This document shows, piece by piece, positions 10,273-45,829 of a DNA stretch of 64,000 bases; the stretch's first letter is position 1, and the number at the start of each line of letters is the position of its first letter. The DNA comes from Candidatus Woesearchaeota archaeon (GTDB lineage Archaea > Nanobdellota > Nanobdellia > Woesearchaeales > JAGVZT01). Position numbers and translations under genes: made by a program. Below the pieces are notes generated by a model. That model was not told the origin of the DNA. It saw only the letters and a program-made list of their open reading frames with translations, and made no database searches. The stretch spans positions 10,897-74,896 of the forward strand of contig JAANXH010000051.1 in assembly GCA_018263355.1 (NCBI GenBank). Direction: 5' to 3'.

Positions 10273-10333
10273 ATAAACACCTCCTAAATGTTTTTTGGCT
10301 ATCATATACTGTTAGCCCTGTTAGCATTAAACC

Positions 10334-17000: not shown

Positions 17001-18242
17001 AGAATTATCTGTTGGGCTTCCAAGTAAATTGATTGGATTTTCATCTTCTCCTGCTCTAAATGCATACAAATTCTGGTCCGAACTCCCAATATAAATTGTA
17101 TTGTTAGCAATAATGGGTGATGCAAAAGTTGACAGTGACATAGAATAATTCCATAGGTGATCTCCATTACTTGTATTTAAAATTATTAATCCTATAATTG
17201 TTCCAACAAACAATTTATCCGAAGATACAACAGGAGATGAAGTCACATCATATGTTGAAGTATAATTCCAAAGCTGAGTGCCTGTTGAGGCATTTAATGC
17301 ATAAACTACATCTTCATCAGTTCCAAAATAAACAACACCTGATGAGTATGCAGGAGAAGATTCAATATAATCCATTGCTGAATAATTCCATATATGCTGT
17401 CCAGTGGAAGAGTTTAAAGCATAAATAGAGTTTAAAAAACCAAACCACGAGTCTATGCTTCCAAAAAACACTTTTCCCTCAGCAACTAATGCAGAAGTAG
17501 TTATATCTCCTCCTGCAGAAAAATTCCAAAGCAAAGAACCATTAAATGCATCCAGTGCATAAATACTATTGTCTGACCAACCACTCCCAAAATAAACACT
17601 ATTATTTGCAACAGCTGGGGCAGAGGTGATTGCACCAATAGTTGAAAAATTCCAAAGTTGGGTTCCAGTTGTTTTATTTAAAGCATACAGACTATAATCA
17701 CTGCTTCCAACATACACTGCCTGTTGCCAGACAGCGGGAGAAGAATAGGAGATGATTCCATTTGTGGTATAATTCCACATCTGTTCTCCTGTAGTCGCAT
17801 TCAATGAATACACCTTATTGTCATCACTTCCAAAATATATTTTACCTTCTGAGATTGCTGGAGATGAATCTATTTTATCTAAAGTTGTAAAATTCCATAT
17901 ATGCTGACCTGTTGATGCATTCAGTGCATATATTTTTTTATCTCTACTGCCAACATATACAAAATCACCTGCAACAGCAGGAGATAGTGAATTAATACTC
18001 CCATTTGTGGTATAATTCCACAATATTCCCATCTTAGTTATATTTACAGTTCCAGGATAAAATCTGGAATTATTAAGATTACGACCAAACATTTTCCATT
18101 CATTAACTGTATTAGAATTAGAATCTGCAGTTATCAAACTAATTAGCAATAAAAATAAAAGCAAAAGTACTAACCCCTTTTTCATACAAGAATGATTACT
18201 TGACAAGTATATAAATTTTATCTGTTTATTAAATATGACCAA
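14055..18242 (-). CDS. Giant secreted surface protein: N-terminal PQQ-like beta-propeller repeats, sequon-rich middle, C-terminal TM anchor
   Basis: Signal peptide MKKGLVLLLLFLLLISLITA. About ten repeats of the form KIYALNASTGQHIWNF...SSPA (PQQ/BamB-like propeller blades). The middle region contains dozens of N-x-S/T sequons. A poly-Gly run SSSSGGGGGGGF precedes a C-terminal hydrophobic helix WLIFLLVLFVIVPGVGIGTYFLI and a basic tail. Confidence 0.6.
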   Translation of the reverse strand: MVIFNKQIKFIYLSSNHSCMKKGLVLLLLFLLLISLITADSNSNTVNEWKMFGRNLNNSRFYPGTVNITKMGILWNYTTNGSINSLSPAVAGDFVYVGSRDKKIYALNASTGQHIWNFTTLDKIDSSPAISEGKIYFGSDDNKVYSLNATTGEQMWNYTTNGIISYSSPAVWQQAVYVGSSDYSLYALNKTTGTQLWNFSTIGAITSAPAVANNSVYFGSGWSDNSIYALDAFNGSLLWNFSAGGDITTSALVAEGKVFFGSIDSWFGFLNSIYALNSSTGQHIWNYSAMDYIESSPAYSSGVVYFGTDEDVVYALNASTGTQLWNYTSTYDVTSSPVVSSDKLFVGTIIGLIILNTSNGDHLWNYSMSLSTFASPIIANNTIYIGSSDQNLYAFRAGEDENPINLLGSPTDNSLKNSTDPVDVSFNCYASDDQGIVNISLYMTNKTNQSFSLNVSQSNIGKSINKTWTMSMGNGTYTWGCLAYDNIGQKIWSENRSLVVDGTLIEYFDFYGYTKYTNGSIINETAVRMNIYTYNEGMDLQKVHFTRSDNAGFFNITDIRIYQNRFYKPTIKHSDEDQVDYIGASLPEFPYTEIQNISPIDFYLQPAAILNFSAINSTGSQIPFKYQVKDKKLGYSVEEDFDSFSLNEQVPVPNNRNYSIMIYPNNSFPVSVDVTNLSSYYEKTFNCTESNERLTGYATINDSANLDSLLVVSYLLEPGRNVYYGDNAQVMFNSTGDDFYNHSSGEYNISVAAQVENSTVLVFAIAQKNSSYYGGFQQVSLSYQTSPGPVNFSLYKLLGNQSNLTVKGFSGQKNIPLKLKQINIYNSTGASISGFASVEVKLNYEQVNFTLTTDVSQNSNGSFYVPILNISGIDRINVYSSSGAPAKKSFNLAELSSELNISLNEPFNVEDPDGDSLGDLFVDMISYRSTCDVPNYDGSCSLFGGEANRSNVNPLSIVMSGVPISFRMRNSNNITVHFVNVDMLASGPPDALFDSNSSDTQGTSAYSQAWRFGSSGPEIYDYVIIGAPYVPATSSQAGINEDLQINISIPVLYDDDWNAVWNSSAGDNTTNITSNSDLSDYQDYVGTEYELYLNSSVACNESDENLTELCYKDADNNMLWFKIPHFSGVGPENIGVFQDIISTTVSSSSGGGGGGGFVPTVGEEKETSKSKLWDVLSLDKNIMQISEAKIAVNKIMFSAAKKVRGAEITIGNLVEQPDSVENIGGPVYQYIEIKTSDNINDSVISSVKIEFEVGRDWISAYSVNSSTVSMYRWENEWSKLDTKQTGSNNTHLFYLANSPGFSYFVISGQRVNTVVDSEAEAKINIVEPEVKPNQENPQTENKFPWLIFLLVLFVIVPGVGIGTYFLISREKKSAKNAQKEFIEQKQKYKKLVGKD

Positions 18243-20284: not shown

Positions 20285-21637
20285 TTAAATCTTGTTTCCT
20301 GCTTTTTCTATCATAAACCAATTCATAGACCTGTTAAATATAGCTTTAAAAATACCAACATTAACATAATAAGTAACAACCATACCTATACTTAAAGATG
20401 CAATTATCAAGTGAAATATATATTTGGTGTGATTGCTTTTTATCAGTGCAATAATTGATGTTAAAGTAAATCCAAAGGTAAAAAATGTAGTTTTACTAAA
20501 TTCTGATATCAATTTTGTCCATTGGATCGGACCTGGTGTGCCGGTCATAAAACTAAGTATTCCTAAAACAAACAAGCACATTAAAAGGAAAGAAAAGGAG
20601 TATCCTGATAGCATTATCATAACTCCTATTTTTGATTTAATATTTATTTTTGAAGATAAAAGAGAGCTTACAAGGTGCTCTTTAAAAGCACTTATTACTC
20701 CATATGCCCATCTCATCTGTTGTTTATATAGATCTTTAGGTCTAAATGGAGTTTCACAGTCACAAGATAAATCTTCCAGATATTTTATTTTATATCCCTT
20801 TTTTAAAATTCTAAATGAACACTCAATATCTTCTGTCAGCGCACCATTTTTCCAGCCACCAACTTCTTCTAATGCCTTTTTCCGAATAACCTCAGCTGAA
20901 CCACAAAGAAAAGAGGTTCCTTGTTTTCTAACCATAGAAGGCATTACAATAAAATGAAATGTGGCACTAACTGCTCCTCCAAGTATTGAAACAAGATTTT
21001 GGCTGAAATTTTTTATATTCCATCTTGCTTGAACTACACCTAAAGAATCATTGTTTTTAAATGGTGCAATAATCCTTTTTAAAAAATCTTTTTTTGGTAG
21101 AAAGTCTGAATCAAATATAACAATAAACTCTCCTTTTGTGAATTTTAACATGTGATTTAGATTACCTGGTTTAAAACCTATGTTGCTTCCTCTCCTTGTT
21201 ACCTTAATTAATTCTGGATGTTTAGATGCGAATCCATCAATCTTTTCAGATACTCTTTTTTTACTACTATCATCTCCAATTATTATTTCATATTTGTCTT
21301 TAGGATAATCAAATTTTAAACATTTTTTTGCACATTTAATTGCTGCAAGCTCATTATATGTTGGGATTTGAATAGTTACAAAAGGAGTATATTTTGTCTT
21401 AAGTGATTTTTCTTCTTGCTTTTTTGTAATATAAGAATATATTAATAACAGCAAATAAAAAACAGATACAATCATTATTACTCCAAGAACAATATCAAAA
21501 AGTACATTAAAAACTAAATGTAGGATATCTAAAATTGGTCGACTAAGTGAAAAATAGAATTCAGAGAACTTCTTAGGGAATTCAAGGTAATACTTAACCC
21601 ACAATTGTATAAATCTTGCTATTAAATCAGTCGCCAT
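20285..21637 (-). CDS. Processive family 2 glycosyltransferase (membrane-integrated, QxxRW type)
   Basis: GDDSS, FDSDF and QQMRWAYG motifs flanked by N- and C-terminal TM helices. Confidence 0.7.
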   Translation of the reverse strand: MATDLIARFIQLWVKYYLEFPKKFSEFYFSLSRPILDILHLVFNVLFDIVLGVIMIVSVFYLLLLIYSYITKKQEEKSLKTKYTPFVTIQIPTYNELAAIKCAKKCLKFDYPKDKYEIIIGDDSSKKRVSEKIDGFASKHPELIKVTRRGSNIGFKPGNLNHMLKFTKGEFIVIFDSDFLPKKDFLKRIIAPFKNNDSLGVVQARWNIKNFSQNLVSILGGAVSATFHFIVMPSMVRKQGTSFLCGSAEVIRKKALEEVGGWKNGALTEDIECSFRILKKGYKIKYLEDLSCDCETPFRPKDLYKQQMRWAYGVISAFKEHLVSSLLSSKINIKSKIGVMIMLSGYSFSFLLMCLFVLGILSFMTGTPGPIQWTKLISEFSKTTFFTFGFTLTSIIALIKSNHTKYIFHLIIASLSIGMVVTYYVNVGIFKAIFNRSMNWFMIEKAGNKI

Positions 21638-21704
21638 GTAAACACACTTTATTTAAAAAAGACCTTTAATATACTTATTAAATATTTCGGTTGTTACATA
21701 TAAT

Positions 21705-23060
21705 TTATACTTCTATAGATATATTTAGTGGGATAAACTCCCATACTTGTACTGCTTGCATATCAATAATCTTGTGAAAAGTTTGGTTATTTCTGAATAA
21801 AAACAATAATCCTTGTTCTTCTTTATTCCAAACCAGGTTCTGCTTCATTCGATTATCAACTAAAATATAAGTAATATTGCTAGAATTAAGCATTTGTGTT
21901 GTTTTATAATAATCCCTAGACTGAAATATTTGTTCAGATATGTCTTTTTGCTCAAAAACTGAAAATCCTGTATAATATTTAATTAATGGATAGTTTGAGT
22001 CATGAGATAACACAATTCCTTTCTCAAAATCATTTAATTTTTTTAGTGCTTTTATTGTGTCCTGATCAGGATATTTGCTAGAAACTCTTTTAATATATGA
22101 AAAAGAAGAAAAGAGCAAACCACATATTACAAGCAAAACTGTAAGTTCTTTTAGTATTTTCAATTGCCATTTCTTTTTAACAAAATTAATCAATCCTTTT
22201 GCAGCAAAAAAGGAAAAAATCAGGTTAAGATAAACTGAGAGATTGATCTTATATAAAATCATTACTAAGATTAAAACAAGAACAAATCCATGCAATAGCC
22301 CATATTTTTTTTTGTTTTTCCATGTTGAGAAAATACCAAGCAAAGCAAGGAATATATTAAACACTCCTAAACCTAAAAGAGCTCCAAAATCAGTAACAGA
22401 ATCTGTAAAAATGTCCTGTAATAAAATCCTAGGTTCTGGCTCAATATAATAGTTTGACACTACACCTAAAAATAAAACTATTGCAAGCAAAAATGCATAT
22501 CCTCTCTTATTTTCAGACTTAATAAGATAATAAACTAAAATCAAAGATATTAGTAGAAGTAATATTAATCCCTGAAGACTTAAAAACATTAAAATTACTC
22601 CTGCAGCTATTTTAGCTTTTTTATTACAACTCAAAAGGTATCCTGCCAGTAGTATTAAAAATATGTAAAGACTATAAGCTGATGAAAAAACAAACATGAA
22701 AATGAATGCTGGAGAACTAATAAAAATTAAACTAATTATCCATGCTTCATATGTGTTGGTTAACTTTTCACAGAAAGCAAATAATAAGGCTGCACTTCCT
22801 AAACAGAATATTAAAGCAACAACAATTGATGCAGCATACAATCCGATTATCCTTCCTAAATTACTAATTAAGAAAACATATGGCTCATTTATCTGAGGGC
22901 CCAAGCTCTGAGCTTGAATAAGATTTGAATAAGCTTGCTCTCCAATTAAAATGGGTTGTGATTGAATCATCCTAATAATAAAAGTAAGAGACAACATAGA
23001 TAAAGCTAAAATTATTAAAACCAGATAGTTTTTTTCCTCTAAAAAATTTTTAATTTTCAT
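21705..23060 (-). CDS. Polytopic membrane protein, probable GT-C fold glycosyltransferase
   Basis: About ten TM helices followed by a roughly 130-aa soluble C-terminal domain. Overlaps the next gene by 11 nt, so an operon is likely. Confidence 0.4.
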   Translation of the reverse strand: MKIKNFLEEKNYLVLIILALSMLSLTFIIRMIQSQPILIGEQAYSNLIQAQSLGPQINEPYVFLISNLGRIIGLYAASIVVALIFCLGSAALLFAFCEKLTNTYEAWIISLIFISSPAFIFMFVFSSAYSLYIFLILLAGYLLSCNKKAKIAAGVILMFLSLQGLILLLLISLILVYYLIKSENKRGYAFLLAIVLFLGVVSNYYIEPEPRILLQDIFTDSVTDFGALLGLGVFNIFLALLGIFSTWKNKKKYGLLHGFVLVLILVMILYKINLSVYLNLIFSFFAAKGLINFVKKKWQLKILKELTVLLVICGLLFSSFSYIKRVSSKYPDQDTIKALKKLNDFEKGIVLSHDSNYPLIKYYTGFSVFEQKDISEQIFQSRDYYKTTQMLNSSNITYILVDNRMKQNLVWNKEEQGLLFLFRNNQTFHKIIDMQAVQVWEFIPLNISIEV

Positions 23061-24546
23061 TTGCTTCTTTGATTGTACAATCTACACTATAGATTATTAT
23101 TGTTTTATTGTATCTCTGCGTAAAACATCTTTCACCAAGGTATTGAATCTTATTAATGTCATATTGGGCTTTTGCTCTTTGTGAAAACAAAATATAATCA
23201 ACTTCATATTTATTAAGTAATCTTATTGCTTCTGTTTGAAATATTGTTGTATACATTGAATTTGTATCAGAATATATTTGATTAATATCTGGTTGTAGCA
23301 AAAAATTCTCATCAATTACATTTTTTCTTTTAGCTATCCCTGTAATCAGATGACCTTCTTTTGGTGTAGCTAGAACTACTGAATCTTGAGGAGTATTGTT
23401 TTTTATCCAGTTAAATGCTTCAATTTCTTCTTGTGTAAAAGAATCTGATACATTAGATGCTGCATATAGAATTGAAGGAACAAATGCAGTTATAATAAAA
23501 ACCAAGATTAAAACAAGATTAATCCATTTTTTATACTTAGTAAACTTGGTTTTATTAAAATATACTGAAAGTTGCTCAAAAGCCTTTGCAGAAAGTAAAG
23601 TTAGAATAATACTAAAATATACTAAACCTATCTGCATACGTATTAGTCTTAACCAAATCAAAGAAAATATTGTGATTGCAAAGGAGATTATCAGATATAT
23701 GTCTCGATTCTTCTCTCTTAAAAGGTGACGGTAGATTACATAGATTCCAGCACAAAAAGGAACTATTCCAATTGTGAATATTGAATCTAAAAGATTAAAT
23801 TCAAGAAAATATTTACTGATAAGAACAGACGGGATATTTTGATGAATTAAATTAGGACCATATGCTAAAAAAGCATTTTTAAATATAATAAAAATTAACC
23901 AGAGAATAAAGAAACATGAGAATGTTATTAACTCTAACTCAATTCTACGGTATCTTAATCCTTCTAACCAAACAAAGAAAAGATAAACAAGAAAAGATAA
24001 TAATGGAAGAATAATTAATTGGTGACTTGCTGCAAGAATAATAAGTAAAATTAGAAAATTTAGAATGTACTTCTTATCTTGAGTAATTTTCATAAAATAA
24101 TAAAGCAAAGCAAAAGTCAGTGGGACAACTAAAGAGTATACTGAAAGTGTATTGAGATCCTTGTATAGTACTGGAAGAAAAGCTGAGATTAATGCAACAA
24201 CTAAACTTATGTTATGTTTTTTTGTTATTTTTTGTGCTATTTTATAATTAATTAAAATAAGAGCGCAAAATAGAATATTAGGCACTAACTTAACAGCTAA
24301 CCCTAGAGGTAAAATTAATGCAAAAAATGCTACCAAATAATGAAAAAATGGCAGAAATATATAAAAACGACCAGAATAGCTTAGTGGATCACTATAAATT
24401 GGAATACCCGTAGATTTGATGCTCTCAATTTGTCTTTGGTTAAAATAAGAAGTTCCATCACTAAAATGTGGTGTCTGAAAACAAAGGTAAAGTCTTATAA
24501 AAAGAGCAAATGCAAATATAATCCACACCTTAGTTTGCTTTCTCAT
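23050..24546 (-). CDS. Polytopic membrane protein, GT-C fold glycosyltransferase (PMT/ArnT-like)
   Basis: N-terminal VWIIFAFALFIRLYLCFQTP, typical of ArnT/PMT-family GT-C enzymes; many TM helices; C-terminal soluble domain. Confidence 0.45.
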   Translation of the reverse strand: MRKQTKVWIIFAFALFIRLYLCFQTPHFSDGTSYFNQRQIESIKSTGIPIYSDPLSYSGRFYIFLPFFHYLVAFFALILPLGLAVKLVPNILFCALILINYKIAQKITKKHNISLVVALISAFLPVLYKDLNTLSVYSLVVPLTFALLYYFMKITQDKKYILNFLILLIILAASHQLIILPLLSFLVYLFFVWLEGLRYRRIELELITFSCFFILWLIFIIFKNAFLAYGPNLIHQNIPSVLISKYFLEFNLLDSIFTIGIVPFCAGIYVIYRHLLREKNRDIYLIISFAITIFSLIWLRLIRMQIGLVYFSIILTLLSAKAFEQLSVYFNKTKFTKYKKWINLVLILVFIITAFVPSILYAASNVSDSFTQEEIEAFNWIKNNTPQDSVVLATPKEGHLITGIAKRKNVIDENFLLQPDINQIYSDTNSMYTTIFQTEAIRLLNKYEVDYILFSQRAKAQYDINKIQYLGERCFTQRYNKTIIIYSVDCTIKEANEN

Positions 24547-35302: not shown

Positions 35303-36346
35303 ATGAAAGAAGGAAAAGCTGATTTAAAAATATATAAAGGTAAAATATCAAAAAAACTAAAAGTTTTTTACAATCCAGCTATGAAGTTAAACAGAGACAT
35401 TTCTATTTTGCTTTTAAATTGCCTTGGTAACAAATATATGCAAATTGCACTTCCACTTACAGGCTCAGGAGTAAGAGGAATAAGATTTTTGCTTGAACTA
35501 GATAAAAATGTTTATAAAAAAATAGTGTTCAATGATTACAGCAATAAATCAATTGAATTAATAAAACACAATATTAAGATCAATGAACTAGAAAAGGATT
35601 ATGAAATAAGTAACAAAGATGCAAATCTATTTTTACTTGAAAGCAAAGGTTTTGACTACATAGATATTGACCCTTTTGGAACACCTAACCCGTTTTTGGA
35701 AAGTTCAATTTTAAGGTTAGCAAGAGGAGGGATCTTGGCAGTTACAGCAACTGACACAAGTGCTTTGTCTGGGTCTTCTCCAAAAGCCTGCAAAAGAAAA
35801 TATTGGGCAAAACCTCTCAAAAACGAATTTATGCATGAGACAGGAATAAGAATATTAATAAGAAAAGTACAGCTTATTGGTGCAGCCTTTGAAAAAGCAT
35901 TAACTCCTATATTCTCTTATACTGATCAACACTATTATCGTGTTTTTTTTAAATGTAAGAAAGGAAAAAAGAAAGCAGATAAAATCCTGCAAAAGCACAA
36001 ATATCTTTTATACAATCCAAAAACTCTAGAAAGGGAGGTATCTGATTTTAATAACAAAAAAGGTTATGATTATGCTGGTCTTTTGTGGACAGGGAATTTG
36101 TGGGATACTAAACTTGCTGAGAAAATGTATTCTAAACATCAAATAAGTAACACACAGTTTCATAATCTTATTTCTTTAATAAAAGATGAATGTAAGATTA
36201 ACTCTGTTGGATATTGGGATTTACATAAATTGGCTAAAACAAAGGATAAACCTATTCCCAAAATTGAATCATTATTAAACAAGGATGCTACAAGGACTCA
36301 TTTTCTGGGATGGGGGATAAAGAGCAAGAATTCCCCAAAATTTTAA
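35303..36346 (+). CDS. trm1: tRNA (guanine26-N2)-dimethyltransferase Trm1
   Basis: VFYNPAMKLNRDISIL, LTGSGVRGIRF, DIDPFGTPNPFLESS are Trm1 signature segments. Confidence 0.8.
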   Translation: MKEGKADLKIYKGKISKKLKVFYNPAMKLNRDISILLLNCLGNKYMQIALPLTGSGVRGIRFLLELDKNVYKKIVFNDYSNKSIELIKHNIKINELEKDYEISNKDANLFLLESKGFDYIDIDPFGTPNPFLESSILRLARGGILAVTATDTSALSGSSPKACKRKYWAKPLKNEFMHETGIRILIRKVQLIGAAFEKALTPIFSYTDQHYYRVFFKCKKGKKKADKILQKHKYLLYNPKTLEREVSDFNNKKGYDYAGLLWTGNLWDTKLAEKMYSKHQISNTQFHNLISLIKDECKINSVGYWDLHKLAKTKDKPIPKIESLLNKDATRTHFLGWGIKSKNSPKF

Positions 36347-37500
36347 TCTTTATTGTATCCAAGTACAAATACGGCGTTTTCTTTTTCTGGATGATACATC
36401 TGTAAAGTATCTGGATAAAAACCTATTCCTTCATTAAAAGGGACTGCGTATAGTTCATTAATCTCAGCAAGATTCTTATTTATATGAGGATATCTAAATG
36501 CCCCAGGCAGGTGAAATCCCCTCTGGACACCGACTACTTGTTCTCTCTCAATTCTAACATTTGGTATTGATGTTGCAAAACAATATAATGGATTTTCATC
36601 TGGATGTTGAGGAGCTACTTTTTCACCATATATTCTCTCAAGTGCATTTGCAATATCTAACTGTGAAGTTTTACTATCTGCTGCACAATAATTGTAAATA
36701 AAACCTAACCCATATGTACGCATTTTACCATCGTGAGAGATGCTACCAAAATCTGAAGTTAATACATTACGTGTCCTAGCCAATTCTTTAACACGTCTCA
36801 TAAGTGTAAGCTCTGGCGAGTGTAGGTTTGCTGCAACTCTTTTATATTCCTGTTCTTGAAAAACACCTATGGAAACCACAAATAATACATTAGGAAATCT
36901 GCTCCACACTTCATAAAGGCGAGACTTTCTTATCATTTCATCATCCAAATTATGATTTTCAACATCTAATCCTTCATGAATCAGCCAGGGAAACAAAAGT
37001 GCATTTGTAGGAGCTCTTACAAACCTTTCCCTTTTAGAATATGCATATATCGGATATTGTCTGTTTATTGCACCATAATCTTGTACTAATTTGTCTACTT
37101 GCTTAGAAACAAGCTTTTCTAGAAAATCTACTCCTCTTAGTTCTCTTAGCTGACTTTGAGAAAGAAGTTGGTTTTGATATGCAATCTGTCTAATCTGTTC
37201 ATCGAGCAATAATACTTCTCCACCGCTATCAGTAAATTGAAGTGCTGGGCTGATTAAATCAGTTAATGCCAATGCAGCTTGATCATCAATAATTTCTGTA
37301 CTATTATTTTCAGAAAATAATGGAAAATTAACAGCACAATGTTTACAGCCAAAGAGATTACACTTTGATGTTAGAAATAAACTCAATGTATTTATGCCTT
37401 GAAACAAAGCAGGGATATTTCCTTCAGCAAAGGAATCACCTAACCGAAAATACTTGTAATTTTCTGACAAATCTAATAATTCAAAGGACATTTTTCTCAC
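36343..37500 (-). CDS. Radical-SAM-like protein with non-canonical CX4CX2C cluster motif
   Basis: TSKCNLFGCKHCAV (C-x4-C-x2-C) is followed by FTDSGGEVLLLDEQ (a GGEP-like SAM motif). The gene looks Q/L/R-richer and higher in GC than its neighbours. Confidence 0.45.
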   Translation of the reverse strand: MRKMSFELLDLSENYKYFRLGDSFAEGNIPALFQGINTLSLFLTSKCNLFGCKHCAVNFPLFSENNSTEIIDDQAALALTDLISPALQFTDSGGEVLLLDEQIRQIAYQNQLLSQSQLRELRGVDFLEKLVSKQVDKLVQDYGAINRQYPIYAYSKRERFVRAPTNALLFPWLIHEGLDVENHNLDDEMIRKSRLYEVWSRFPNVLFVVSIGVFQEQEYKRVAANLHSPELTLMRRVKELARTRNVLTSDFGSISHDGKMRTYGLGFIYNYCAADSKTSQLDIANALERIYGEKVAPQHPDENPLYCFATSIPNVRIEREQVVGVQRGFHLPGAFRYPHINKNLAEINELYAVPFNEGIGFYPDTLQMYHPEKENAVFVLGYNKD

Positions 37501-38054: not shown

Positions 38055-38311
38055 GTATATTAGGAGTTTTGTTTTGCTTTTAAAGCTTATGGTTTTCTTT
38101 TACTAATTACCTTAACTTATATAAGCCAATACACAGATATATTAGAAAAACTTATATATTCAAGATTTAGGATTAAACTTATGGAAAAAAAAGGTACTTT
38201 TAATTGGGCAAATCAAAAGTTAATTGTATTAGCTATTGTAATTATTGGGATTATACTTTTATTATTTTTCTTTAGAACTAAATTAAAAAGTTTATTACAC
38301 TTATAGTAAAA

Positions 38312-38941
38312 ATGAAAAAAAGAGGAGAGTTTACCCCCACAAAGGTCTTAGCAGTAATTATTCTCACATTAATTGCTGGACTTGCAATATGGCAAACTAC
38401 CAAGGCAGCTGGAACAGATACTTCAATATATGTTGATGATCGTATTTGCGCTGGTTCTATTGCTGTTGCAACAAAAGAAAAAATCCCTGATTTTAACTGT
38501 GAAGCACAAAGATTAACAATAATTAAAGAGGATTTTGATAAAGGTGATAATGTTACAAGAGAGCTTGCTAATAAGATGATAGAATTTTGGTACACAGTAG
38601 GTGCAGGCGAAAATCAACCTTACCCATTAAAAAGCACATTTAATGAAGTATGTTTGATAGGCTACATAATTGAATTTAAAGATATTAATAATATTAAAGG
38701 GATGGATTTATTTATGACACAGAATGAGGTACGTGGTAAAAAATATCACGAACACTTATATTCCAGAGCTGCAACAGATGAAGAGATTCAAGAGTTTGAA
38801 AAACAGGAAGACATTATTGATACTTCTGTTTCCCAAGCAATAGTTTGGAGGGTTAACAGGATAGGATCTCACGACTATCAATCAATGGAAATTATTCCCT
38901 ATCAACAGTTAGATAAAAAATGCAGTATTGTGATGAATTAA
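38312..38941 (+). CDS. Secreted protein with class III (prepilin-like) signal peptide
   Basis: MKKRGEFTPTKVLAVIILTLIAGLAIW N-terminus. Two Cys in the soluble domain. Confidence 0.45.
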   Translation: MKKRGEFTPTKVLAVIILTLIAGLAIWQTTKAAGTDTSIYVDDRICAGSIAVATKEKIPDFNCEAQRLTIIKEDFDKGDNVTRELANKMIEFWYTVGAGENQPYPLKSTFNEVCLIGYIIEFKDINNIKGMDLFMTQNEVRGKKYHEHLYSRAATDEEIQEFEKQEDIIDTSVSQAIVWRVNRIGSHDYQSMEIIPYQQLDKKCSIVMN

Positions 38942-38942
38942 A

Positions 38943-39806
38943 ATGATACCTTGGTATGTATATGCAATAGGAGGTGTTTGTTTTTCAGCAGCTTTTGTAG
39001 TTTTGCGGAAAAAAGCCTTGGGTTCAGAACACTCTCTAAATTTTGAATCAACCAGATTACTAATTAATGCTCTTTTATGCTTAATATTATTCCCTTTACT
39101 TGATTTTAATTTTGACTTAAAGTTTATTTTATTAATGTATCTAAACTCTATTTTTGGTACAATAGGGATTTTGCTTGCTTCCAGAGCACTCAGACATGGT
39201 CAGATATCATTAATTACTCCTTTAGGAAATATTAAACCTGTATTTGTATCCTTGCTGGCTTTTCTTTTTTTGGGAGAATCCATAACTTTAATTCAGGGAA
39301 TGGGAATTTTGATTATACTTATTTCAATGTATCTGCTTGAATCAGACCACCATGTTTCAAATCTTGTGCATCCAATCAAAAATTTGACAAAGGATCACTA
39401 CAGCATACTGTTTATCTTGGCCTATGTGTTGTTTAGTATTGGAAATATTTTTGACAAATTTTTTGTCAGTGAAGTTAATATTTACACTTACGGAACCATA
39501 TTATGGTTCTTCTTGGCACTTAATATGAATCTATACCATGGGATAGTGCATGGATTCAAAGAAGTAATAACCTGCATGAAAAATAATAAATTGGTTTTTC
39601 TGGTTTCATTGTTTTCAATAATAAGCTGGTTTTTGGGACTTAAGGCAGTTTCAATGGCATATGTTTCATTAGTAGCACCAGTCTTGACTCTATCTTCATT
39701 ATTTGTAATAATTTTTGGGGGTAAGTTTTTTGAAGAAAAATACCTCTATTTTAGATTAGGTATGGCTTGTTTAATGATAATTGGATCATATCTGGTGATC
39801 GCATGA
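38943..39806 (+). CDS. EamA/DMT-family transporter
   Basis: 287 aa with about ten TM helices in two similar halves, typical of the DMT superfamily. Confidence 0.55.
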   Translation: MIPWYVYAIGGVCFSAAFVVLRKKALGSEHSLNFESTRLLINALLCLILFPLLDFNFDLKFILLMYLNSIFGTIGILLASRALRHGQISLITPLGNIKPVFVSLLAFLFLGESITLIQGMGILIILISMYLLESDHHVSNLVHPIKNLTKDHYSILFILAYVLFSIGNIFDKFFVSEVNIYTYGTILWFFLALNMNLYHGIVHGFKEVITCMKNNKLVFLVSLFSIISWFLGLKAVSMAYVSLVAPVLTLSSLFVIIFGGKFFEEKYLYFRLGMACLMIIGSYLVIA

Positions 39807-40729
39807 ATAAAAAAGCAATGGCTATGAGTACAATTGCATTGGCAATACTTGTTTTTATTATAGGTTTACTAATTATATTTTTTATTTCAAATTCTATGAA
39901 TGATGGAGAACAATATACAGACAGAAAATTATGCGAAAAAAGCATTGATGCAAGTTCCAATAAATTAAGAGAAGAAATGAATGGACTATTTGATCCACAT
40001 GGAAATTCAGTTAAACTGGAATGTTCTACAGAATATATTAACTACAAAGAAAAAGATCCTGAAAAGATTAAAAGAATTATTGCAAATAAAATGTATGATT
40101 GCTGGGATATGTATGGGGAAGGGGAGAAGGAAATTTTTGAAACTAAGGATGGAGCGTTTTGTGCAGTATGTTCTAGATTAACTTTTAAAAAAGAGGTTGA
40201 GGTTAATGATTTTTTATTGTATTTGAGAGATACAGATATCCCAAACAAACCAATCAAATATTGGGAGTATTTTATGGGATCAGAAGTAAAAAAATTTAGG
40301 ACAGAGTATTATGAGAATACAGAACTTGAAAAATATGATAAGTTCAGCACTTCTGAACCTATTGCTATTGTGTATTATATGAACAAAGATGCATTTCCAG
40401 GAATAACTGGGGATTTACTCGAAAATTTCCAGAGCACAAAAAAAGTTCAGGCAATTAAGGGAGGGGGAGTAGGTATAGCAACTGGGTTAGTAGGAGGTGT
40501 AATTGCTTGCGTGGCCGGTGCCCCGGTTTGTGGAGCCGCAGGTATTTTTATTGCTGCCACTACTGTGGGGGGGTTTTTAATAGGAACTGGTGGGGGCTAC
40601 ACTATAGGTTCTGACCGGAGTGCAGATTGGGATGCAAGAATTTTATTAACAGGATATGAAAATTTAGATAAGTTAGAATGCACAAGATTAGAATCTAAAT
40701 CAACACCCTTAGACGTTATCCAAAAATAA
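39803..40729 (+). CDS. Pilin-like protein with C-terminal glycine-zipper TM segment
   Basis: Start moved to MNKKAMAMSTIALAILVFIIGLLIIFFI (ATGA overlap with the EamA stop). The C-terminal GGGVGIATGLVGGVIACVAGAPVCGAAGIFIAATTVGGFLIGTGGG is a Gly-zipper. Confidence 0.4.
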   Translation: MNKKAMAMSTIALAILVFIIGLLIIFFISNSMNDGEQYTDRKLCEKSIDASSNKLREEMNGLFDPHGNSVKLECSTEYINYKEKDPEKIKRIIANKMYDCWDMYGEGEKEIFETKDGAFCAVCSRLTFKKEVEVNDFLLYLRDTDIPNKPIKYWEYFMGSEVKKFRTEYYENTELEKYDKFSTSEPIAIVYYMNKDAFPGITGDLLENFQSTKKVQAIKGGGVGIATGLVGGVIACVAGAPVCGAAGIFIAATTVGGFLIGTGGGYTIGSDRSADWDARILLTGYENLDKLECTRLESKSTPLDVIQK

Positions 40730-40913
40730 TATAAACAAAAGAATTATTGTGTATCAAAATGAGGAAAAAAGCAGAATTAAGTTTTGTTTGGTCAAAGTTA
40801 ATAAACATTGCATTAGTTTTAGCATTATTAATTATATTAATATTAGCGGTTTATTTTCTAAATGACAATTCAAAGGATATCTGGAAGTCTATTAGTAATA
40901 TTTTGAGGTTCAC

Positions 40914-41954
40914 ATGAATAAAAAAGCTATTGCCACTTTTTCAATAATAATTGTTGCTGCTATTTCTTTAATAGTACTAATTGCTGTAGGTAGTCAAATT
41001 AGGAAAGTGAATGAAGGTATGGGTTTTTTTGGTAATTTAAAGTCTTGGGTATTTGGTGAGAGTGAAAAAAGTGATTTAATTGAAGAATTTAAAGTAGAAA
41101 AAAAACTAGGGAAGAGAGTGATGATTCAATGGAGGTTAGATCCCGTAGTGGAGAAGGACGCAGACTTCTACCCAGAATTATATTATTGGGATTCTCCAAG
41201 CAATAAAAAACCAATTGAATTAAAAGGTGTTACATCAAAAGATAGAATACACACTCTTTACTATGAATTACCTAATTATAAGGATCACACAATCTCCTTG
41301 CAAATATTTAGAGAGTCAGAAGAATCTTTAGAGTCAGAAGGATTTATAGATTTAGAAAAAGTAGAAGAGGATACAGAAGAACTAGCTGATGAGGATGAAA
41401 TAACAGTTAGTTTTAGACAGGAGATGGACCATACAACATTTACAGATTTTACAGGTTTAATTGATAATTATATTGGTTATAATCTTTTAGAAAAAGGAGA
41501 ATCAGAAATAGTATTTCCACATTATTGGCTAGAAAAAGATTACATGGTTGTAGGATTTTCAGACGCAAATGCTCAAAGAAAAAAATGTGGGTTTGGTTCT
41601 ACAACAATATTAAGACCTCCTGAGTGCGCAGGTAAATCCTGTTTATGCTTGTGTAAAGGACATTCATTTAATTCATGCCAAAAAACTTACTTGTGTGAAT
41701 CTTTTGATGGTATAGATATTGTTGCAAAAGAACCAATAGAAAAGAGTTCAAAGAAAGTTTCAAGAGGAAAAAAAATTGAAAGATGGAGAGATCAGAAAGA
41801 TATTCACATAGTGTTTATGGGAAAATGTGGAGTAGGTAAAAAATGGAATAATCATAATAGAGACTTGAAATTAGTTTTCAGTAAGGAGATTAGAAAATTG
41901 GAAAATTTCGACACGCCAATCAATGCAAAAGTGATTTATATTGATATACAATAG
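40914..41954 (+). CDS. Pilin-like secreted protein, Cys-rich (CLCLC motif)
   Basis: MNKKAIATFSIIIVAAISLIVLIAV N-terminus. The motif ECAGKSCLCLCKGHSFNSCQKTYLC is shared with the 42214 gene. Confidence 0.45.
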   Translation: MNKKAIATFSIIIVAAISLIVLIAVGSQIRKVNEGMGFFGNLKSWVFGESEKSDLIEEFKVEKKLGKRVMIQWRLDPVVEKDADFYPELYYWDSPSNKKPIELKGVTSKDRIHTLYYELPNYKDHTISLQIFRESEESLESEGFIDLEKVEEDTEELADEDEITVSFRQEMDHTTFTDFTGLIDNYIGYNLLEKGESEIVFPHYWLEKDYMVVGFSDANAQRKKCGFGSTTILRPPECAGKSCLCLCKGHSFNSCQKTYLCESFDGIDIVAKEPIEKSSKKVSRGKKIERWRDQKDIHIVFMGKCGVGKKWNNHNRDLKLVFSKEIRKLENFDTPINAKVIYIDIQ

Positions 41955-41962
41955 GTGATAAA

Positions 41963-42217
41963 ATGAAAAAGAAAGGAGTAGAACTGACTTTAAATACAAT
42001 AATTATTGCAGCAATATGCATAATAGTATTAATAGTTGTGCTGGCAATTTTCACAAATTTATTTTCAGGAATAGGTAAGGATATTGATAAACTCGCAAAA
42101 TGCAAAGCAATGGGTAAAAACACAGGATCTTGTGTTGCAGAAAATGATGAAAATAAGAATTGTATGCCTGGGTTTGGAGGTTGTAAACCAAACCAATTTT
42201 GTTGTTGGTCAGGATGA
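41963..42217 (+). CDS. Small pilin-like protein, Cys-rich C-terminus
   Basis: MKKKGVELTLNTIIIAAICIIVLIVVLAIF is a strongly type IV pilin-like N-terminus. C-terminal CKAMGKNTGSCVAENDENKNCMPGFGGCKPNQFCCWSG. Confidence 0.5.
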   Translation: MKKKGVELTLNTIIIAAICIIVLIVVLAIFTNLFSGIGKDIDKLAKCKAMGKNTGSCVAENDENKNCMPGFGGCKPNQFCCWSG

Positions 42218-42882
42218 AAAAGAAAGGAGGGATAGAATTATCATTAGTCCAAATATTTGGCCTAGTAATCTTAGCTTCTATTCTAATTATAATGCTCCCA
42301 AAAATATTTGGGGTACAGAATTGGCTTATACAAACTATCAAAAATATGGTTGCTAAACCAAATGTATTTAATCTTGCATCAGAACATAATTTTAACCGAT
42401 TAAATAAAGATATCTCTAGCTTTATTGATTCTAAAAAACAAAAAGACAGTATATCAATACCTTATACATTGGGTAAAAAATACTCTTTAATAGGTTTTAA
42501 TGAAAATGATATTACAAATGAATGTTTCAAAAAATACAGTAAACCCTATATTTGCAAAAATGACGCTTGTTTATGCTTGTGTGAAAATAATAAAGAAAAA
42601 ACGTGTATTAACTGTAAAAAATATGATATCCGAAGAAGAAAAGTTTATTTTATTGGTGGAGAGGATAAGATAAATAATTGTTTTGAAGGTGATGCAATGA
42701 ACAAGATTGACCCAGTTACAAGAGACACAGCTTATTGCATGCAAATAGATGGAGGAAAATGGATAGATATCAATTGGAAAACTAGTAACCTCTATATTGA
42801 AAAAATCACAGATAATGAAAATTATGAAGTATTTATTTATATAGGAAGAGAAGATGATTCTAAAAACCGCATATCTGGCTAG
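42214..42882 (+). CDS. Pilin-like secreted protein, Cys-rich (CLCLC motif) paralog
   Basis: MKKKGGIELSLVQIFGLVILASILIIMLP N-terminus (ATGA overlap with the upstream stop). Motif KNDACLCLCENNKEKTCINC. Confidence 0.45.
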   Translation: MKKKGGIELSLVQIFGLVILASILIIMLPKIFGVQNWLIQTIKNMVAKPNVFNLASEHNFNRLNKDISSFIDSKKQKDSISIPYTLGKKYSLIGFNENDITNECFKKYSKPYICKNDACLCLCENNKEKTCINCKKYDIRRRKVYFIGGEDKINNCFEGDAMNKIDPVTRDTAYCMQIDGGKWIDINWKTSNLYIEKITDNENYEVFIYIGREDDSKNRISG

Positions 42883-42924
42883 TTTTCAAAAATAATATAA
42901 ATACCTAATTCTAAGATTCCATTA

Positions 42925-43338
42925 ATGATACAAAAGAGGTTGAATAAAAGAGCTATGACTACTGAAATAATGTATCTAATTTTGGATTTACTAATCGCAA
43001 GTATATTTCTTTTATTTTTGACTGGATTTATTTATTCAAGTGTCAAAGGAAACACAATTTTTGTAAAAAACTATATTACTAGAGATATTGCTCTAATGAT
43101 TGAAACAGGCGTTGCAAGTCCACATTATCTTAAGTATATTTATCAGGAAAATGTTACAGATTTCTCGATTAGTGTATCTAATAATAAAGTCAATATATGG
43201 GATGGAGGTAAAGAGAATAATGTTCCAAATACTTACTCTTATGCATATATTAAAGATCATGAATTTAACTATGGTCCTGAAAACAATAATCTGCTTGTTT
43301 TCTTAAATAAAGAGGTGTTTATTGTAGATGGAGAGTAA
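42925..43338 (+). CDS. Pilin-like protein
   Basis: MIQKRLNKRAMTTEIMYLILDLLIASIFLLFL N-terminus. Confidence 0.4.
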   Translation: MIQKRLNKRAMTTEIMYLILDLLIASIFLLFLTGFIYSSVKGNTIFVKNYITRDIALMIETGVASPHYLKYIYQENVTDFSISVSNNKVNIWDGGKENNVPNTYSYAYIKDHEFNYGPENNNLLVFLNKEVFIVDGE

Positions 43339-43840
43339 ATCTGGAGAGATTACTTTTAATCAAATATCGCGAATGATTAGATATATCCTTACATTATTTA
43401 TAGCATTGAGCATAGTCTTGCTAATAAGAAATACACTTATTGTTAACATAAATATACAGGAAATACAAAGCCAAGTTATTTTCAATAATATTTTCTATTC
43501 AAAAAAATGCTTTTCTTATCAGGACCCAGAGCTTAATAGAATTGTTCCTGGAACTATTGATTTAAACAAATTTACTGAAGATACAATAAACAACTGTTTA
43601 TATTTTGGAGAACCAAATAATATGGCTGCTGCTTTAGTTACATTAGTATCAATTAAAGATGGTACTGAAACAGATTTGTATTACAATAAAGAGGGCTATG
43701 AGATACTTGAACCAAGAACTAGTTTTGATGGAACTGGAGCAGCAAAATCATTCTCACATACAAAGTATGTATTTATTAAATCAGAAGATTCAATCAGTCC
43801 AGGAGTGTTATATATAAAATTAATTTTACCAGAACAATGA
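43328..43840 (+). CDS. Pilin-like protein
   Basis: MESKSGEITFNQISRMIRYILTLFIALSIVLLI N-terminus. Overlaps the upstream gene. Confidence 0.4.
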   Translation: MESKSGEITFNQISRMIRYILTLFIALSIVLLIRNTLIVNINIQEIQSQVIFNNIFYSKKCFSYQDPELNRIVPGTIDLNKFTEDTINNCLYFGEPNNMAAALVTLVSIKDGTETDLYYNKEGYEILEPRTSFDGTGAAKSFSHTKYVFIKSEDSISPGVLYIKLILPEQ

Positions 43841-44379
43841 ACAAAAAAGGATTTTACACAGATTACATACCAGATATTATATCCTGGGCAGCATATGTAT
43901 TAATTTTTATACTTTTTGTTATATTGTTTACTATTAGATTTTCAGGATGTAAAAATCTGGGAGACACAAGATCAGAACACGAACTAATTGGAAAATTTGA
44001 GGGTTCACTAAACAAGAACCAGATTTTATTAAGTTTTCTGAAGACTAAAGTTCAAATTAATGAAAGAGACAAAACCATAGCTGAACTAATTATAATCTCA
44101 ATGCAAGAAGATAATTTTGATGTGTTTGAATCAGTATTCAAAGAAACAATCGGTGAATATGATAGTCTGGCAAATAGCAAATGTTCTCAAATAACAATAA
44201 TATACCAAAATAAAATTATAAAAACTGTAACAACAGAATCCTGTAAAGAAAAAGCACTCAATACTGGGGATATCAAAAAAGGTAATTTAGGCAAAGTAAT
44301 TATTCCAAGATATTATGCAGATTCTTTAGATGGTGTTTTAGTAGCACTTGTACAAGGTGAGGAAGAAGATGAAGAATAA
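43837..44379 (+). CDS. Pilin-like protein
   Basis: MNKKGFYTDYIPDIISWAAYVLIFILFVILF N-terminus. Its start overlaps the previous stop. Confidence 0.4.
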   Translation: MNKKGFYTDYIPDIISWAAYVLIFILFVILFTIRFSGCKNLGDTRSEHELIGKFEGSLNKNQILLSFLKTKVQINERDKTIAELIIISMQEDNFDVFESVFKETIGEYDSLANSKCSQITIIYQNKIIKTVTTESCKEKALNTGDIKKGNLGKVIIPRYYADSLDGVLVALVQGEEEDEE

Positions 44380-45829
44380 AAAAGGTTCTTTCTATCCTTT
44401 CATTATAGTATTTATTTCTCTAGCAATCCTAATAACTACATATATTTTTCTCACACAAGTAACTCTTAATCAAGAAATTGGCGATGAACAACTAGAAATA
44501 TTTAACTCATATCATAAAGGAGAAGAATTTATTTTTTATATGGAGCTTGCAGGAAAATATTCTTCTAATCAGGCGGTTCATGAGCTTGCACAAAGGGGGG
44601 GTTTTGCAGCTGAATCTGAATGTGGTCAATTCAAAGGCCATAATATGTGGAACTATTTGGGAAAAGAATGCATTCCAGACCCTACAGTCTCATATGAATT
44701 TATTTTTAATGAAAAAATAATAAAATACTCTTCGAATTTCCAAGAAGAATTAAAATTAAAGTATAATCTAGATTTTACTGACTCTGGATTTATTGCAAGT
44801 CCAAAAAACATGGTAGATATAATTATTCAAGATGATGAAGATAATCCCTTTATGTTTAGACTAGGCAATGAAATTGATTATACTGAGGTAGAACCAGAAA
44901 AAGATATCTGCAGAGATGTTGCAGATGGTGCTATCAAATCTGTAGAGATGAATTGTAAGTTTGCTGTTGATGGAAACCCAGATATTCCTAATTGTGATCA
45001 AGGATTAAATTCTGTAGACTTTAATAACTTTGCACTAACTCAAATAGACAATCCACAACCAAAGATTTCTGGTCCAGGCATGGATTTTTGTAAAAATGGA
45101 GAAGTTTATGACCTTACTGTTGAAATTGAGAAAAAACAATTAAAACCAGGAGATTTTGTTTCAGTAAACTATCCTGGAATAGACGGGCAAACAAAAGGAC
45201 ATACTGCAGTATATGTTGGTAAAGGTAAAGTTTCTGATCCTGCTGATTTTTGGGTTGCAAGATGTTTTAAAGAGTTTATTGCTGATGAGTCTGGAGAGCA
45301 TATTTTTGCTAGTTCAATTGGATGGTTGGACTATGACCCACCTCCTCCACACGAACTCGTAGGAAGATCATGCTTTACTCCAGACAGTATGTTTTTTAGT
45401 TTTTATAATAGCCCTCATTTCTGTAGGCTTACTACTTGCAACAAAAACAATTTAATCAGACAAGCAGGACCTAAAAGCATAGGAGAGATTCCAAAACAGG
45501 CCAAAGGAGTTTACTCAATTTATCCGAGCATAAACATTAAACAGGAATATGATTTTGAAGAATATAATATTATTACGGATCAATTTGAAGAGTACATTAC
45601 AAATGTTGAGAATTGCAGGAACCTGGTTGGTGATCCAGGAGAACCACCTACTTTTTTTGCATGTATTATTTCAAGAAAGCCAGACAACTGGCAACTAGTC
45701 GACTCAGAAGATGAAAAATACTTGTTTAGTGTTGAAAGTGAACATGAGTCAGATTATTCAGACCCCTCAGGCATTTTAGTTAACAATAAAAAAGTAGAGT
45801 ATATGTTTGCACTTCATTTTCCTAACTGA
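44369..45829 (+). CDS. Large pilin-like / adhesin-like secreted protein
   Basis: MKNKKGSFYPFIIVFISLAILITTYIFL N-terminus, then a roughly 450-aa Cys-containing globular region. The alternative upstream start at 44348 was not used. Confidence 0.4.
   Translation: MKNKKGSFYPFIIVFISLAILITTYIFLTQVTLNQEIGDEQLEIFNSYHKGEEFIFYMELAGKYSSNQAVHELAQRGGFAAESECGQFKGHNMWNYLGKECIPDPTVSYEFIFNEKIIKYSSNFQEELKLKYNLDFTDSGFIASPKNMVDIIIQDDEDNPFMFRLGNEIDYTEVEPEKDICRDVADGAIKSVEMNCKFAVDGNPDIPNCDQGLNSVDFNNFALTQIDNPQPKISGPGMDFCKNGEVYDLTVEIEKKQLKPGDFVSVNYPGIDGQTKGHTAVYVGKGKVSDPADFWVARCFKEFIADESGEHIFASSIGWLDYDPPPPHELVGRSCFTPDSMFFSFYNSPHFCRLTTCNKNNLIRQAGPKSIGEIPKQAKGVYSIYPSINIKQEYDFEEYNIITDQFEEYITNVENCRNLVGDPGEPPTFFACIISRKPDNWQLVDSEDEKYLFSVESEHESDYSDPSGILVNNKKVEYMFALHFPN

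Follow-up and report, generated by a model that had tools for sequence, protein, structure and literature searches.

Modular pilins and tip complexes are known from bacteria, where they include FimU-PilVWX-PilY1 of type IV pili, GspH-I-J-K of the type II secretion system (T2SS), and PilB/PilC of Streptococcus sanguinis. In archaea, the Epd pili of Methanococcus maripaludis, type IV filaments (TFF) of 'system 1' whose subunits are processed by the prepilin peptidase EppA, are encoded by an 11-gene single transcription unit (bioRxiv 10.64898/2026.04.22.720090). EppA needs a small residue at position -1 of its substrates, and Gln at +1 is reported to be essential for pilin processing (PMC4390842). 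TFF system 1 has also been reported in DPANN archaea (bioRxiv 10.64898/2026.04.22.720090), and Makarova et al. described DPANN islands of 'dark-matter' pilins that adjoin FlaI/TadC genes (PMC6393860). Peptidoglycan hydrolases (PGHs) are reported to be especially frequent and diverse in Nanoarchaeota (PMC12352652) and have been found in metagenome-assembled genomes (MAGs) of Woesearchaeota (PMC9723730). The gene cluster described here lies at 38181-45829 (+) of a 64-kb stretch of DNA from a Candidatus Woesearchaeota archaeon, a member of DPANN (hereafter the window). It consists of 12 co-directional genes, of which 11 (g0, g1, and g3 to g11, in order) encode proteins with class III-like, that is, type IV pilin-like, N-termini and one encodes an EamA transporter. 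The most informative new result is that the last gene belongs to a family of hydrolase carriers. We give about even odds (roughly 0.5) to the reading that the cluster products are subunits of a type IV filament or pseudopilus that is assembled by machinery from other loci and displays a cap directed at cell walls; a pilus is a plausible, if unproven, product of these genes.

The terminal gene, g11 (44369-45829 (+), 486 aa), specifies a protein identical to NCBI MAG795_01012 in which an N-terminal domain is followed by an NlpC/P60-like middle module and a C-terminal domain. The N-terminal domain (44369..44878 (+), residues 1-170) opens with MKNKKG and SFYPFIIVFISL and continues with the pattern IGxxQ..Y.xGE...Y.D.AAKY..Q...LA..GG...CG....WN....C.P. 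A protein search with the g11 sequence alone found itself and one 54% relative, and searches with a 119-sequence alignment and a 34-sequence domain alignment gave 3 proteins each; a HMMER scan with g11 and its orthologue returned 852 proteins at E<=1e-3, most of them matching residues 1 to ~150. Together these define a conserved domain of ~130 residues, consisting of a transmembrane (TM) segment and the signature IGxxQ..YQxGE..FYIDQSAKYS..LAxxGG..CG..LWN..CYP, in which G38, C85, W94, C101, and P103 are near-invariant and which nearly always starts with ...KK[G/A/S] and a helix. The domain matches no Pfam or NCBIfam family, and what follows it varies. Among 119 members submitted to Pfam, we found M23 (11 proteins), SLT (9 proteins), M15/VanY, NlpC/P60, Amidase_2, M74, glucosaminidase, CHAP, phage lysozyme, and fn3 domains, and the 33 complete operon-terminal proteins carry VanY (14), M15 (9), Amidase_2 (4), M15_3 (4), or SLT (2). 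The module differs from locus to locus, with SLT in L008 and L028, Amidase_2 in L006, and VanY/M15 in L009. Judged by these domain assignments, the last position of the operon is occupied by a conserved pilin-like carrier domain fused to an exchangeable peptidoglycan-hydrolase module. Directly 3′ of the g11-type gene in L028 lies a gene (L028:11275-15219 (+)) for a 1,314-aa polysaccharide deacetylase/VanY/NAGPA (phosphodiester glycosidase) protein, which by its predicted domains is a multi-enzyme cell-wall toolkit.

The middle module of g11 itself (44921..45490 (+), residues 185-374) is a divergent NlpC/P60/CHAP-like sequence. Alone, g11 matches Pfam NLPC_P60 with 16.7 bits (E=0.0074), short of the 23-bit cut-off; homologues of the module reach 1.6e-5 for CHAP (25.8 against 26 bits) and ~0.007 for NLPC_P60/CHAP, and a profile of the module compared with the PDB has NlpC/P60 peptidases as its top matches (6biq_A at E=8.3e-5, CwlO, and MepS). 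Such peptidases use a Cys-His-His/polar catalytic triad, as in C68-H119-H131 of Escherichia coli MepS. Relatives of g11 contain GL[TS]CA...GHTGM...F[IA]HS, and at the corresponding motifs g11 and its orthologue read GLNSV (Ser215), GHTAV (His278), and FASS (Ser315), so that by motif correspondence the nucleophilic Cys and the third His are each replaced by Ser and only the first His is kept. This assignment of the nucleophile is tentative, because it rests on motif correspondence and the HMMER alignment to 6biq pairs the catalytic Cys with another invariant Cys (PNC, residue 209). Since both the Cys and the third His appear as Ser, the module is probably a noncatalytic binding module, possibly wall-binding, rather than an enzyme. 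The C-terminal domain (45506..45826 (+), residues 380-486) is common to GH19-like and other family members (P0013, P0070) and is encoded by a separate downstream gene in some genomes (L006, L027, L030). The PGHs carried by the terminal gene family suggest that the target is the bacterial cell wall. An earlier note on this DNA had raised the possibility of a host-attachment pilus, a suggestion that misses this strongest of the functional clues.

The cluster is conserved well beyond the window. An orthologous cluster, L002 (GCA_964419615.1), matches that of the window in gene content, gene order, and flanking genes. Amino acid identity between the two is 42-60% within the cluster (29% for g0) and 75-78% for the flanking Trm1, RPA, and RadA, which indicates that the cluster genes are real and conserved though fast evolving. 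The basic-[G/A/S] dipeptide is kept while residues around it have changed, and in g4 and g8 the residue at -1 has switched between Ala and Gly. With the g11 N-terminal domain as query, we retrieved 29 archaeal genome contigs, and a metagenome scan with u330, one of the extra upstream genes described below, added 80 loci; collinear copies of the cluster were thus compared in 111 archaeal loci, and all informative titles among them name DPANN lineages. This is the comparison of genomic context across relatives that the earlier note had suggested, and it bears out the array as a conserved unit. Of the 29 genome contigs, 16 bear the name Woesearchaeota, Pacearchaeota, Nanoarchaeota, or Nanoarchaeia in their titles, and another two are labeled simply 'archaeon'. 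The titles of 11 others (L013-L017, L019, L020, L022, L027, L031, and L033; TPA/binchicken assemblies) read 'uncultured Methanosarcinales archaeon', which looks at odds with the DPANN-like gene content of those loci, and we do not rely on this title.

With hidden Markov models built from the window and L002 genes, the recurring order is one to three g6-like genes, g1/g3, g4, g6, g5/g7, g8, g9, g10, and g11. The cluster usually lies upstream of RPA/RadA, as it does in the window, and RPA is found downstream in 22 of the 43 loci that hold g11. The recurrence of gene order and of RPA argues for a conserved core system and not an island. A mobile or viral island was considered and rejected, as composition matches the flanks (~31% G+C across the whole window) and synteny is conserved. 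About half of the loci have four additional conserved pilin-like genes upstream (u155, u330, u160a, and u160b), which have no counterpart in the window. Further upstream, the extended operon includes a ~700-aa protein of no known kind, a ~400-aa protein with a similar N-terminus, and a TSP3/Ig-like repeat protein of 1,700-2,000 aa; examples, from the sets L006-L034 and L035-L114, are L010:1638-4156 and L087:211-12010. The EamA gene is present only in the window and L002 among the 111 loci, and we therefore regard it as a lineage-specific insertion outside the conserved system.

The second line of evidence is the N-terminal motif. All 11 of the non-EamA products begin M-x(0-9)-[KR][KRS][GA] and continue with a hydrophobic stretch, whose best 19-residue window scores 2.1-3.5 on the Kyte-Doolittle scale, the leaders of g0, g1, and g3 to g11 ending, in order, in KKG, KRG, KKA, KKA, KKA, KKG, KKGG, KRA, KSG, KKG, and KKG. 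A loose test for [KR][GAS] followed by a TM segment picks out 12 of the 12 open reading frames in the cluster and 4 of 78 elsewhere in the window (Fisher p=7e-12), with the qualification that the EamA match is to an internal loop, so that 11 of the 12 cluster matches are true. The earlier note had ascribed class III-type N-termini to every gene but EamA and the same pattern to a stand-alone gene at 3178-3666, and both statements held up. The latter gene (3178-3666 (+), 162 aa) is the only one of the four outside matches that resembles the cluster proteins and has, in MIKNKRG followed by FQLSINMIIIVVIAL, the most canonical such N-terminus in the window. This N-terminus is similar to that of g6 in L002 (E=3e-5); the protein has a single relative among the fetched loci (L106) and matches no Pfam family.

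Across families, the motif behaves as a constrained signal. In the 29 genome loci, [KR][GAS] occurs within 12 residues of the helix in 268 of 295 N-terminally anchored proteins inside the cluster and in 67 of 123 outside, where the outside set still contains the u-genes; Gly, Ala, or Ser follows the last K/R in 80% of cases, compared with 18.7% in the background. Over the 111 loci, the -1 residue is divided nearly evenly among Gly, Ala, and Ser (33/37/33 in the g6 family, 103 of whose 105 members, at one to three copies per locus, carry the motif). The residue at +1 is Gln in 83 of 103 g6, 65 of 65 u160a, 67 of 69 u160b, 51 of 54 u155, and 21 of 44 g8 members. In u160b, Q+1, E+3, G+6, and L+7 are invariant, and 23 of 44 members of the g8 family have an acidic residue within +1 to +6. 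Retention in the orthologue, exchange between Ala and Gly at -1, and conservation of -1 and +1 family by family are the marks of a motif under selection. In the window proteins the +1 residue is Val, Met, Phe, Ser, or Ile and never Gln, and they therefore fit the general class III pattern and not the EppA subtype.

The genes are packed as would be expected of an operon. Two TATA-like boxes (CTTATATA; 38116-38123 and 38151-38158 (+)), read off the sequence 23-65 nt 5′ of the g0 start, likely form the archaeal promoter of the operon, a function we infer. Neighboring genes overlap by 4 nt (ATGA) in four cases and by 11 nt in two, the other gaps measure 1-42 nt, and GGTGA-like Shine-Dalgarno motifs precede internal gene starts; the packing and these motifs make a single transcript plausible. 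The tight packing with ATGA overlaps had been remarked on before. The array was also correctly recognized, but its start had been placed at 38312, 131 nt downstream of the true start at 38181, g0 and g4 had been missed, and the range of product sizes, given as 84 to 487 aa, is now 41-486 aa.

The first gene, g0 (38181-38306 (+), 41 aa), has a class III-like N-terminus (MEKKG, then TFNWANQKLIVLAIVIIG), one helix, and little besides; its L002 orthologue begins MNKRG..., and it has also been called as a gene in a Logan contig. It is followed by g1 (38312-38941 (+), 209 aa; MKKRG, then EFTPTKVLAVIIL), which has an extracellular Cys-containing domain and is a paralogue of g3, and by the 10-TM EamA-family transporter (38943-39806 (+), 287 aa; PF00892, E=2.8e-21). 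Next comes g3 (39803-40729 (+), 308 aa from ATG; MNKKA, then MAMSTIALAIL...), whose extracellular domain resembles that of g1 and is followed by a Gly-rich transmembrane hairpin and a conserved tail, SDRSADWDARILL, with matches in other loci down to E=8e-49; g3 is probably a membrane-resident component. The product of g4 (40759-40917 (+), 52 aa; MRKKA, then ELSFVWSKLINIALV) is a helix-only mini-protein 60% identical to its L002 orthologue, which has Gly at -1 where the window has Ala. A Cys-rich 'CLCLC' domain is common to g5 (40914-41954 (+), 346 aa; MNKKA, then IATFSIIIVAAISL) and g7 (42214-42882 (+), 222 aa; MKKKGG, then IELSLVQIFGLVIL), between which lies g6 (41963-42217 (+), 84 aa; MKKKG, then VELTLNTIIIAAICIIVL), with a 6-Cys knot after its helix. 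The remaining genes are g8 (42925-43338 (+), 137 aa; ...NKRA, then MTTEIMYLILD...), which is minor-pilin-like; g9 (43328-43840 (+), 170 aa; MESKSG, then EITFNQISRMIRYILTLF), the most conserved small member (E down to 5e-37); and g10 (43837-44379 (+), 180 aa; MNKKG, then FYTDYIPDIISWAAYVLIF), with conserved acidic residues at about +4 and +8. When L002 orthologues were compared within the cluster, g1 matched g3 at E=6e-19 and g5 matched g7 at E=2e-7. The Cys-rich C-terminal modules described earlier are thus real and paralogous, but the supposed Gly-zipper is a predicted extra transmembrane hairpin of g3 and not a soluble module.

The mechanism that we favor would begin with insertion of each product into the membrane by its N-terminal helix. 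A class III signal peptidase of the FlaK/PibD/EppA type, encoded elsewhere, would cleave after the basic-[G/A/S] motif. The helices would then be drawn out into a filament or a short pseudopilus by an ATPase of the FlaI type and a platform of the FlaJ type, whose genes would likewise lie elsewhere. The bulk subunit would likely be g6, with g7-g10 as low-abundance, minor-pilin-like subunits, and g11, last and largest, would be a modular pilin-like protein that bears the cell-wall-directed module on the structure. The g1/g3 proteins, which have extra spans in most genomes, would remain membrane-embedded accessories. In relatives, the g11 position is filled by active-looking hydrolases; the NlpC/P60-like module in the window would most likely bind peptidoglycan and not cut it. 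The role of the whole would then be contact with bacterial cell walls and, in relatives, their local breaching. Of these elements, the gene structures, the conservation of motif and operon, and the domain fusions are observed; cleavage, formation of a filament, the roles of the subunits, and the target are inferred. With a family of one to three copies per locus, g6 is the best candidate for a major filament subunit. Its family has a C-terminal head of ~45 residues with 4-6 conserved cysteines ending in CC or CCC and a weak match to Pfam 'Conotoxin' (E=0.0012), so the family may combine a pilin-like helix with a disulfide-rich head of the knottin type. A further hint comes from structure prediction. 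The AlphaFold model of the g11 N-terminal domain, made from a shallow alignment (predicted local distance difference test [pLDDT] 68.5), has an N-terminal helix of ~68 residues kinked at G38, one more helix, and a 4-stranded antiparallel sheet, a layout that suggests that of pilins in general. Full-length g11 modeled from 3 sequences was unusable (pLDDT 33.5).

Several observations weigh against a pilus. None of the curated pilin, archaellin, or class III models of Pfam and NCBIfam, which included Class_IIIsignal (PF04021), Pilin_N (PF07790), archaellin, and the NCBIfam pilin/archaellin N-terminal models, matched a window protein at E<=1. No curated pilin match was obtained with 28 g6-family members either (best, UpsA in 3 members at E>=0.016). 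The best PDB match of a g6 family profile was 8rey_M, a 'Flagellin-like protein', at E=0.12 in a helix-only alignment; profiles of the g8, g9, and u160b families against PDB sequences gave nothing relevant, and fold searches with the g11 N-terminal model at its pLDDT of 68.5 gave no significant match. A strict FlaFind-like pattern matched g3 alone among the products. The helices of g1, g4, g9, and g10 begin 6-12 residues past the motif with charged residues between, which for g9 and g10 tells against the filament reading, the N-terminus of g9 being atypical in that basic residues separate motif and helix. Two further transmembrane segments mean that g3 cannot be an ordinary filament subunit, and relatives of g1 elsewhere also carry extra spans. 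The earlier class III reading is therefore upheld by conservation of the motif, with its interchange of Gly, Ala, and Ser and its +1 Gln, but not by curated models or by the strict pattern, and the proposed set of major and minor pilins or adhesins remains plausible from that conservation while matching no pilin model or solved pilin.

The absence of linked machinery also tells against a pilus. Reading all translations and running Pfam on the large unassigned proteins turned up neither a T2SSE/FlaI ATPase nor a FlaJ/TadC platform nor an A24 peptidase anywhere in the window, as had been stated earlier, and in the 111 loci the 10 kb on either side of the anchor gene encode no protein of >250 aa with a GxxG[SAC]GK[ST][ST] P-loop. 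The upstream neighbors examined are giant TSP3/Ig-like proteins, an Na+/H+ exchanger, and an AAA_14 protein. None of the neighbors checked as possible machinery qualified: a 10-TM protein upstream in L008 is the Na+/H+ exchanger; a Walker-A protein in L015 is an AAA_14/DUF4143 protein; and the large upstream proteins are, by Pfam, the TSP3/Ig-like surface proteins. Lacking linked machinery, the cluster is an unlinked subunit operon, and if its products form a type IV filament, they must use an ATPase, platform, and peptidase from elsewhere. Support at the level of the lineage comes from one study, which reports flaI, flaJ, and flaK for most of its Woesearchaeota MAGs (PMC11606122).

The missing machinery is also what one would see if the products were co-regulated, N-terminally anchored envelope proteins, trimmed by a peptidase or not, that reside in a membrane or S-layer complex without any extruded filament. 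Such a complex would hold wall hydrolases and Cys-rich binders at the cell surface, much as has been imagined for the Sulfolobus bindosome, and might help the cell to feed on material from bacterial walls or to grip a partner. It would accommodate the two or three extra membrane spans of g3 and most g1/g3 relatives, the near reduction of g0 and g4 to one helix, the noncanonical N-termini of g9 and g10, the lack of any pilin model or fold match, and the inclusion in extended operons of 1,700-2,000-aa TSP3/Ig-like surface proteins with C-terminal anchors, and class III signals are known on archaeal non-pilin binding proteins (bioRxiv 10.64898/2026.04.22.720090). Against this stand the strict [KR][GAS], the Gln at +1, and the near-N-terminal acidic residues of several families, which are expected of subunits that are cleaved and packed by their helices; the small g6 family, at ~80 aa when mature and one to three copies per locus, looks like a polymerizing subunit, and the bindosome itself needs a dedicated ATPase and platform. 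On balance, we consider a filament-free complex possible but doubtful.

A short T2SS-like pseudopilus, with g6 as the major pseudopilin and g7-g11 as a GspH-I-J-K-like tip complex, would have the job of pushing attached or separately encoded hydrolases through the S-layer instead of forming a long adhesive pilus. The succession of one small and then four or five larger subunits, of which the largest comes last and lacks the near-N-terminal acidic residue, parallels the gspG-H-I-J-K order of T2SS operons, and hydrolase cargo is found in the last gene or, as with the deacetylase/VanY/NAGPA protein of L028, beside it. We know of no T2SS-like pseudopilus described in archaea, however, and fusion of the hydrolases to a pilin-like domain suits display better than piston-driven release; the missing machinery and fold evidence count here as they do for a filament, and we judge a pseudopilus of this kind improbable. 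Ordinary Sec signals, or chance AT-/Lys-rich features, in a fast-evolving viral or mobile island without common function would explain the faster divergence of the cluster than of its neighbors (42-60% versus 75-78% identity) and its lack of family annotations, but this hardly credible account is contradicted by composition, which is as in the flanks, by synteny (order and RPA/RadA position conserved over many genomes), by the per-family motif counts, and by extreme motif enrichment (12/12 versus 4/78; 80% versus 18.7%), and the hydrophobic stretches of ~20 residues or more, with no A-x-A type site after them, differ from the Sec-type signals of the S-layer and PQQ-repeat proteins of the window.

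If cleavage and assembly follow the pilin pattern, as in the type IV filament that we favor, the products would represent a new functional class of type IV filament tipped with enzymes, and this in turn would be a strong hint of bacterial hosts or prey; if they remain uncleaved, they would represent a new conserved envelope complex. Either way, ~15 uncharacterized protein families gain a shared context and become defined experimental targets. We would go further only tentatively and suggest, as a speculation less likely to be right than wrong, that the operon and its extended form are a dedicated cell-wall-breaching organelle of Woesearchaeales-type DPANN, in which a filament carries an exchangeable hydrolase as its terminal subunit. 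Were this so, these archaea would attach to or prey on bacteria and not archaea, class III-dependent display would be the route by which Nanoarchaeota deploy PGHs that mostly have no recognized Sec/Tat signal, and the machinery that builds the organelle, none of which is near the cluster in the 111 loci, may be unlinked or of an unrecognized type. DPANN make up a large share of archaeal diversity, and the locus bears on how Woesearchaeota-type lineages touch or exploit other cells. It supplies a concrete and testable link, namely hydrolases borne on a conserved pilin-like N-terminal domain and encoded by the last gene of a conserved pilin-like operon.

The rest of the window includes housekeeping genes (Trm1, EF-1beta, RPA, RadA, CDC48, and ribosomal proteins) together with an S-layer protein and glycosyltransferases. 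Two large surface proteins, one of 848 aa with an S-layer-like sequence (PF05124) and an acidic tail (7759-10305 (-)) and one of 1,395 aa with many PQQ-like beta-propeller repeats, N-glycosylation sequons, and a C-terminal anchor (14055-18242 (-)), have ordinary Sec-type signals, unlike the cluster proteins. A possible module for glycan or envelope biosynthesis occupies 20285-24546 (-), where two large polytopic membrane proteins of 451 and 498 aa, almost devoid of family assignments, come after a GT2 glycosyltransferase. A 385-aa protein (36343-37500 (-)) contains a CxxxxCxxC motif (SKCNLFGCKHC) reminiscent of radical-SAM proteins, has no Pfam match, and is conserved beside EF-1beta in L002 only.

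Set beside known systems, the cluster shares features with four. As in bacterial modular pilins, a pilin-type N-module is joined to a functional C-terminal module, and as in bacterial tip complexes, pilin-like genes of varied size follow the major subunit, the largest coming last; it differs from the modular pilins in its archaeal setting and leader, in having no conserved Glu at +5, and in that homology is undetectable. To our knowledge, no bacterial modular pilin has a PGH as its grafted module. With the Sulfolobus bindosome and class III signal peptide (SPIII) binding proteins, it has in common that class III signals occur on proteins whose functional part is no filament subunit, and the 'functionalization' of TFF machineries with SPIII proteins is an idea already proposed (bioRxiv 10.64898/2026.04.22.720090). 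The bindosome displays solute-binding proteins for uptake, whereas the cargo here is wall hydrolases or a degenerate hydrolase, and it includes an ATPase and platform (basEF), of which none is linked to this cluster.

The likeness to Woldo/Danwoldo and to the 'large lytic murein transglycosylases' of Woesearchaeota lies in the possession of PGHs by archaea that have no murein, and the g11-family proteins P0006, P0030, and L008:9998-11677 are such SLT proteins; the g11 of the window differs in that it is probably no enzyme. The survey of archaeal PGHs considered Sec/Tat signals only, which are present in about one-third of them (PMC12352652). In the text that we searched of the archaeal PGH studies, proteins are treated as having Sec/Tat signals or no signal and are not tied to a shared pilin-like N-terminal domain or a conserved operon, and the literature searched held no description of either this domain or this operon.

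The Epd locus contains its own ATPase, two platform genes, and a dedicated peptidase, whereas the cluster has none of these within 10 kb in the 111 loci. Neither Epd pilins nor Pfam Class_IIIsignal/Pilin_N show detectable sequence similarity to the cluster products, the window proteins have Val, Met, Phe, Ser, or Ile at +1 in place of Gln, and the terminal subunit bears wall-hydrolase modules. What the two have in common is a multi-gene operon for one small major and several minor pilins and a short basic leader with a small residue at -1 and, in most g6, u155, u160a, and u160b relatives, Gln at +1. By leader type and operon logic, the Epd pilus is the closest system to this one.

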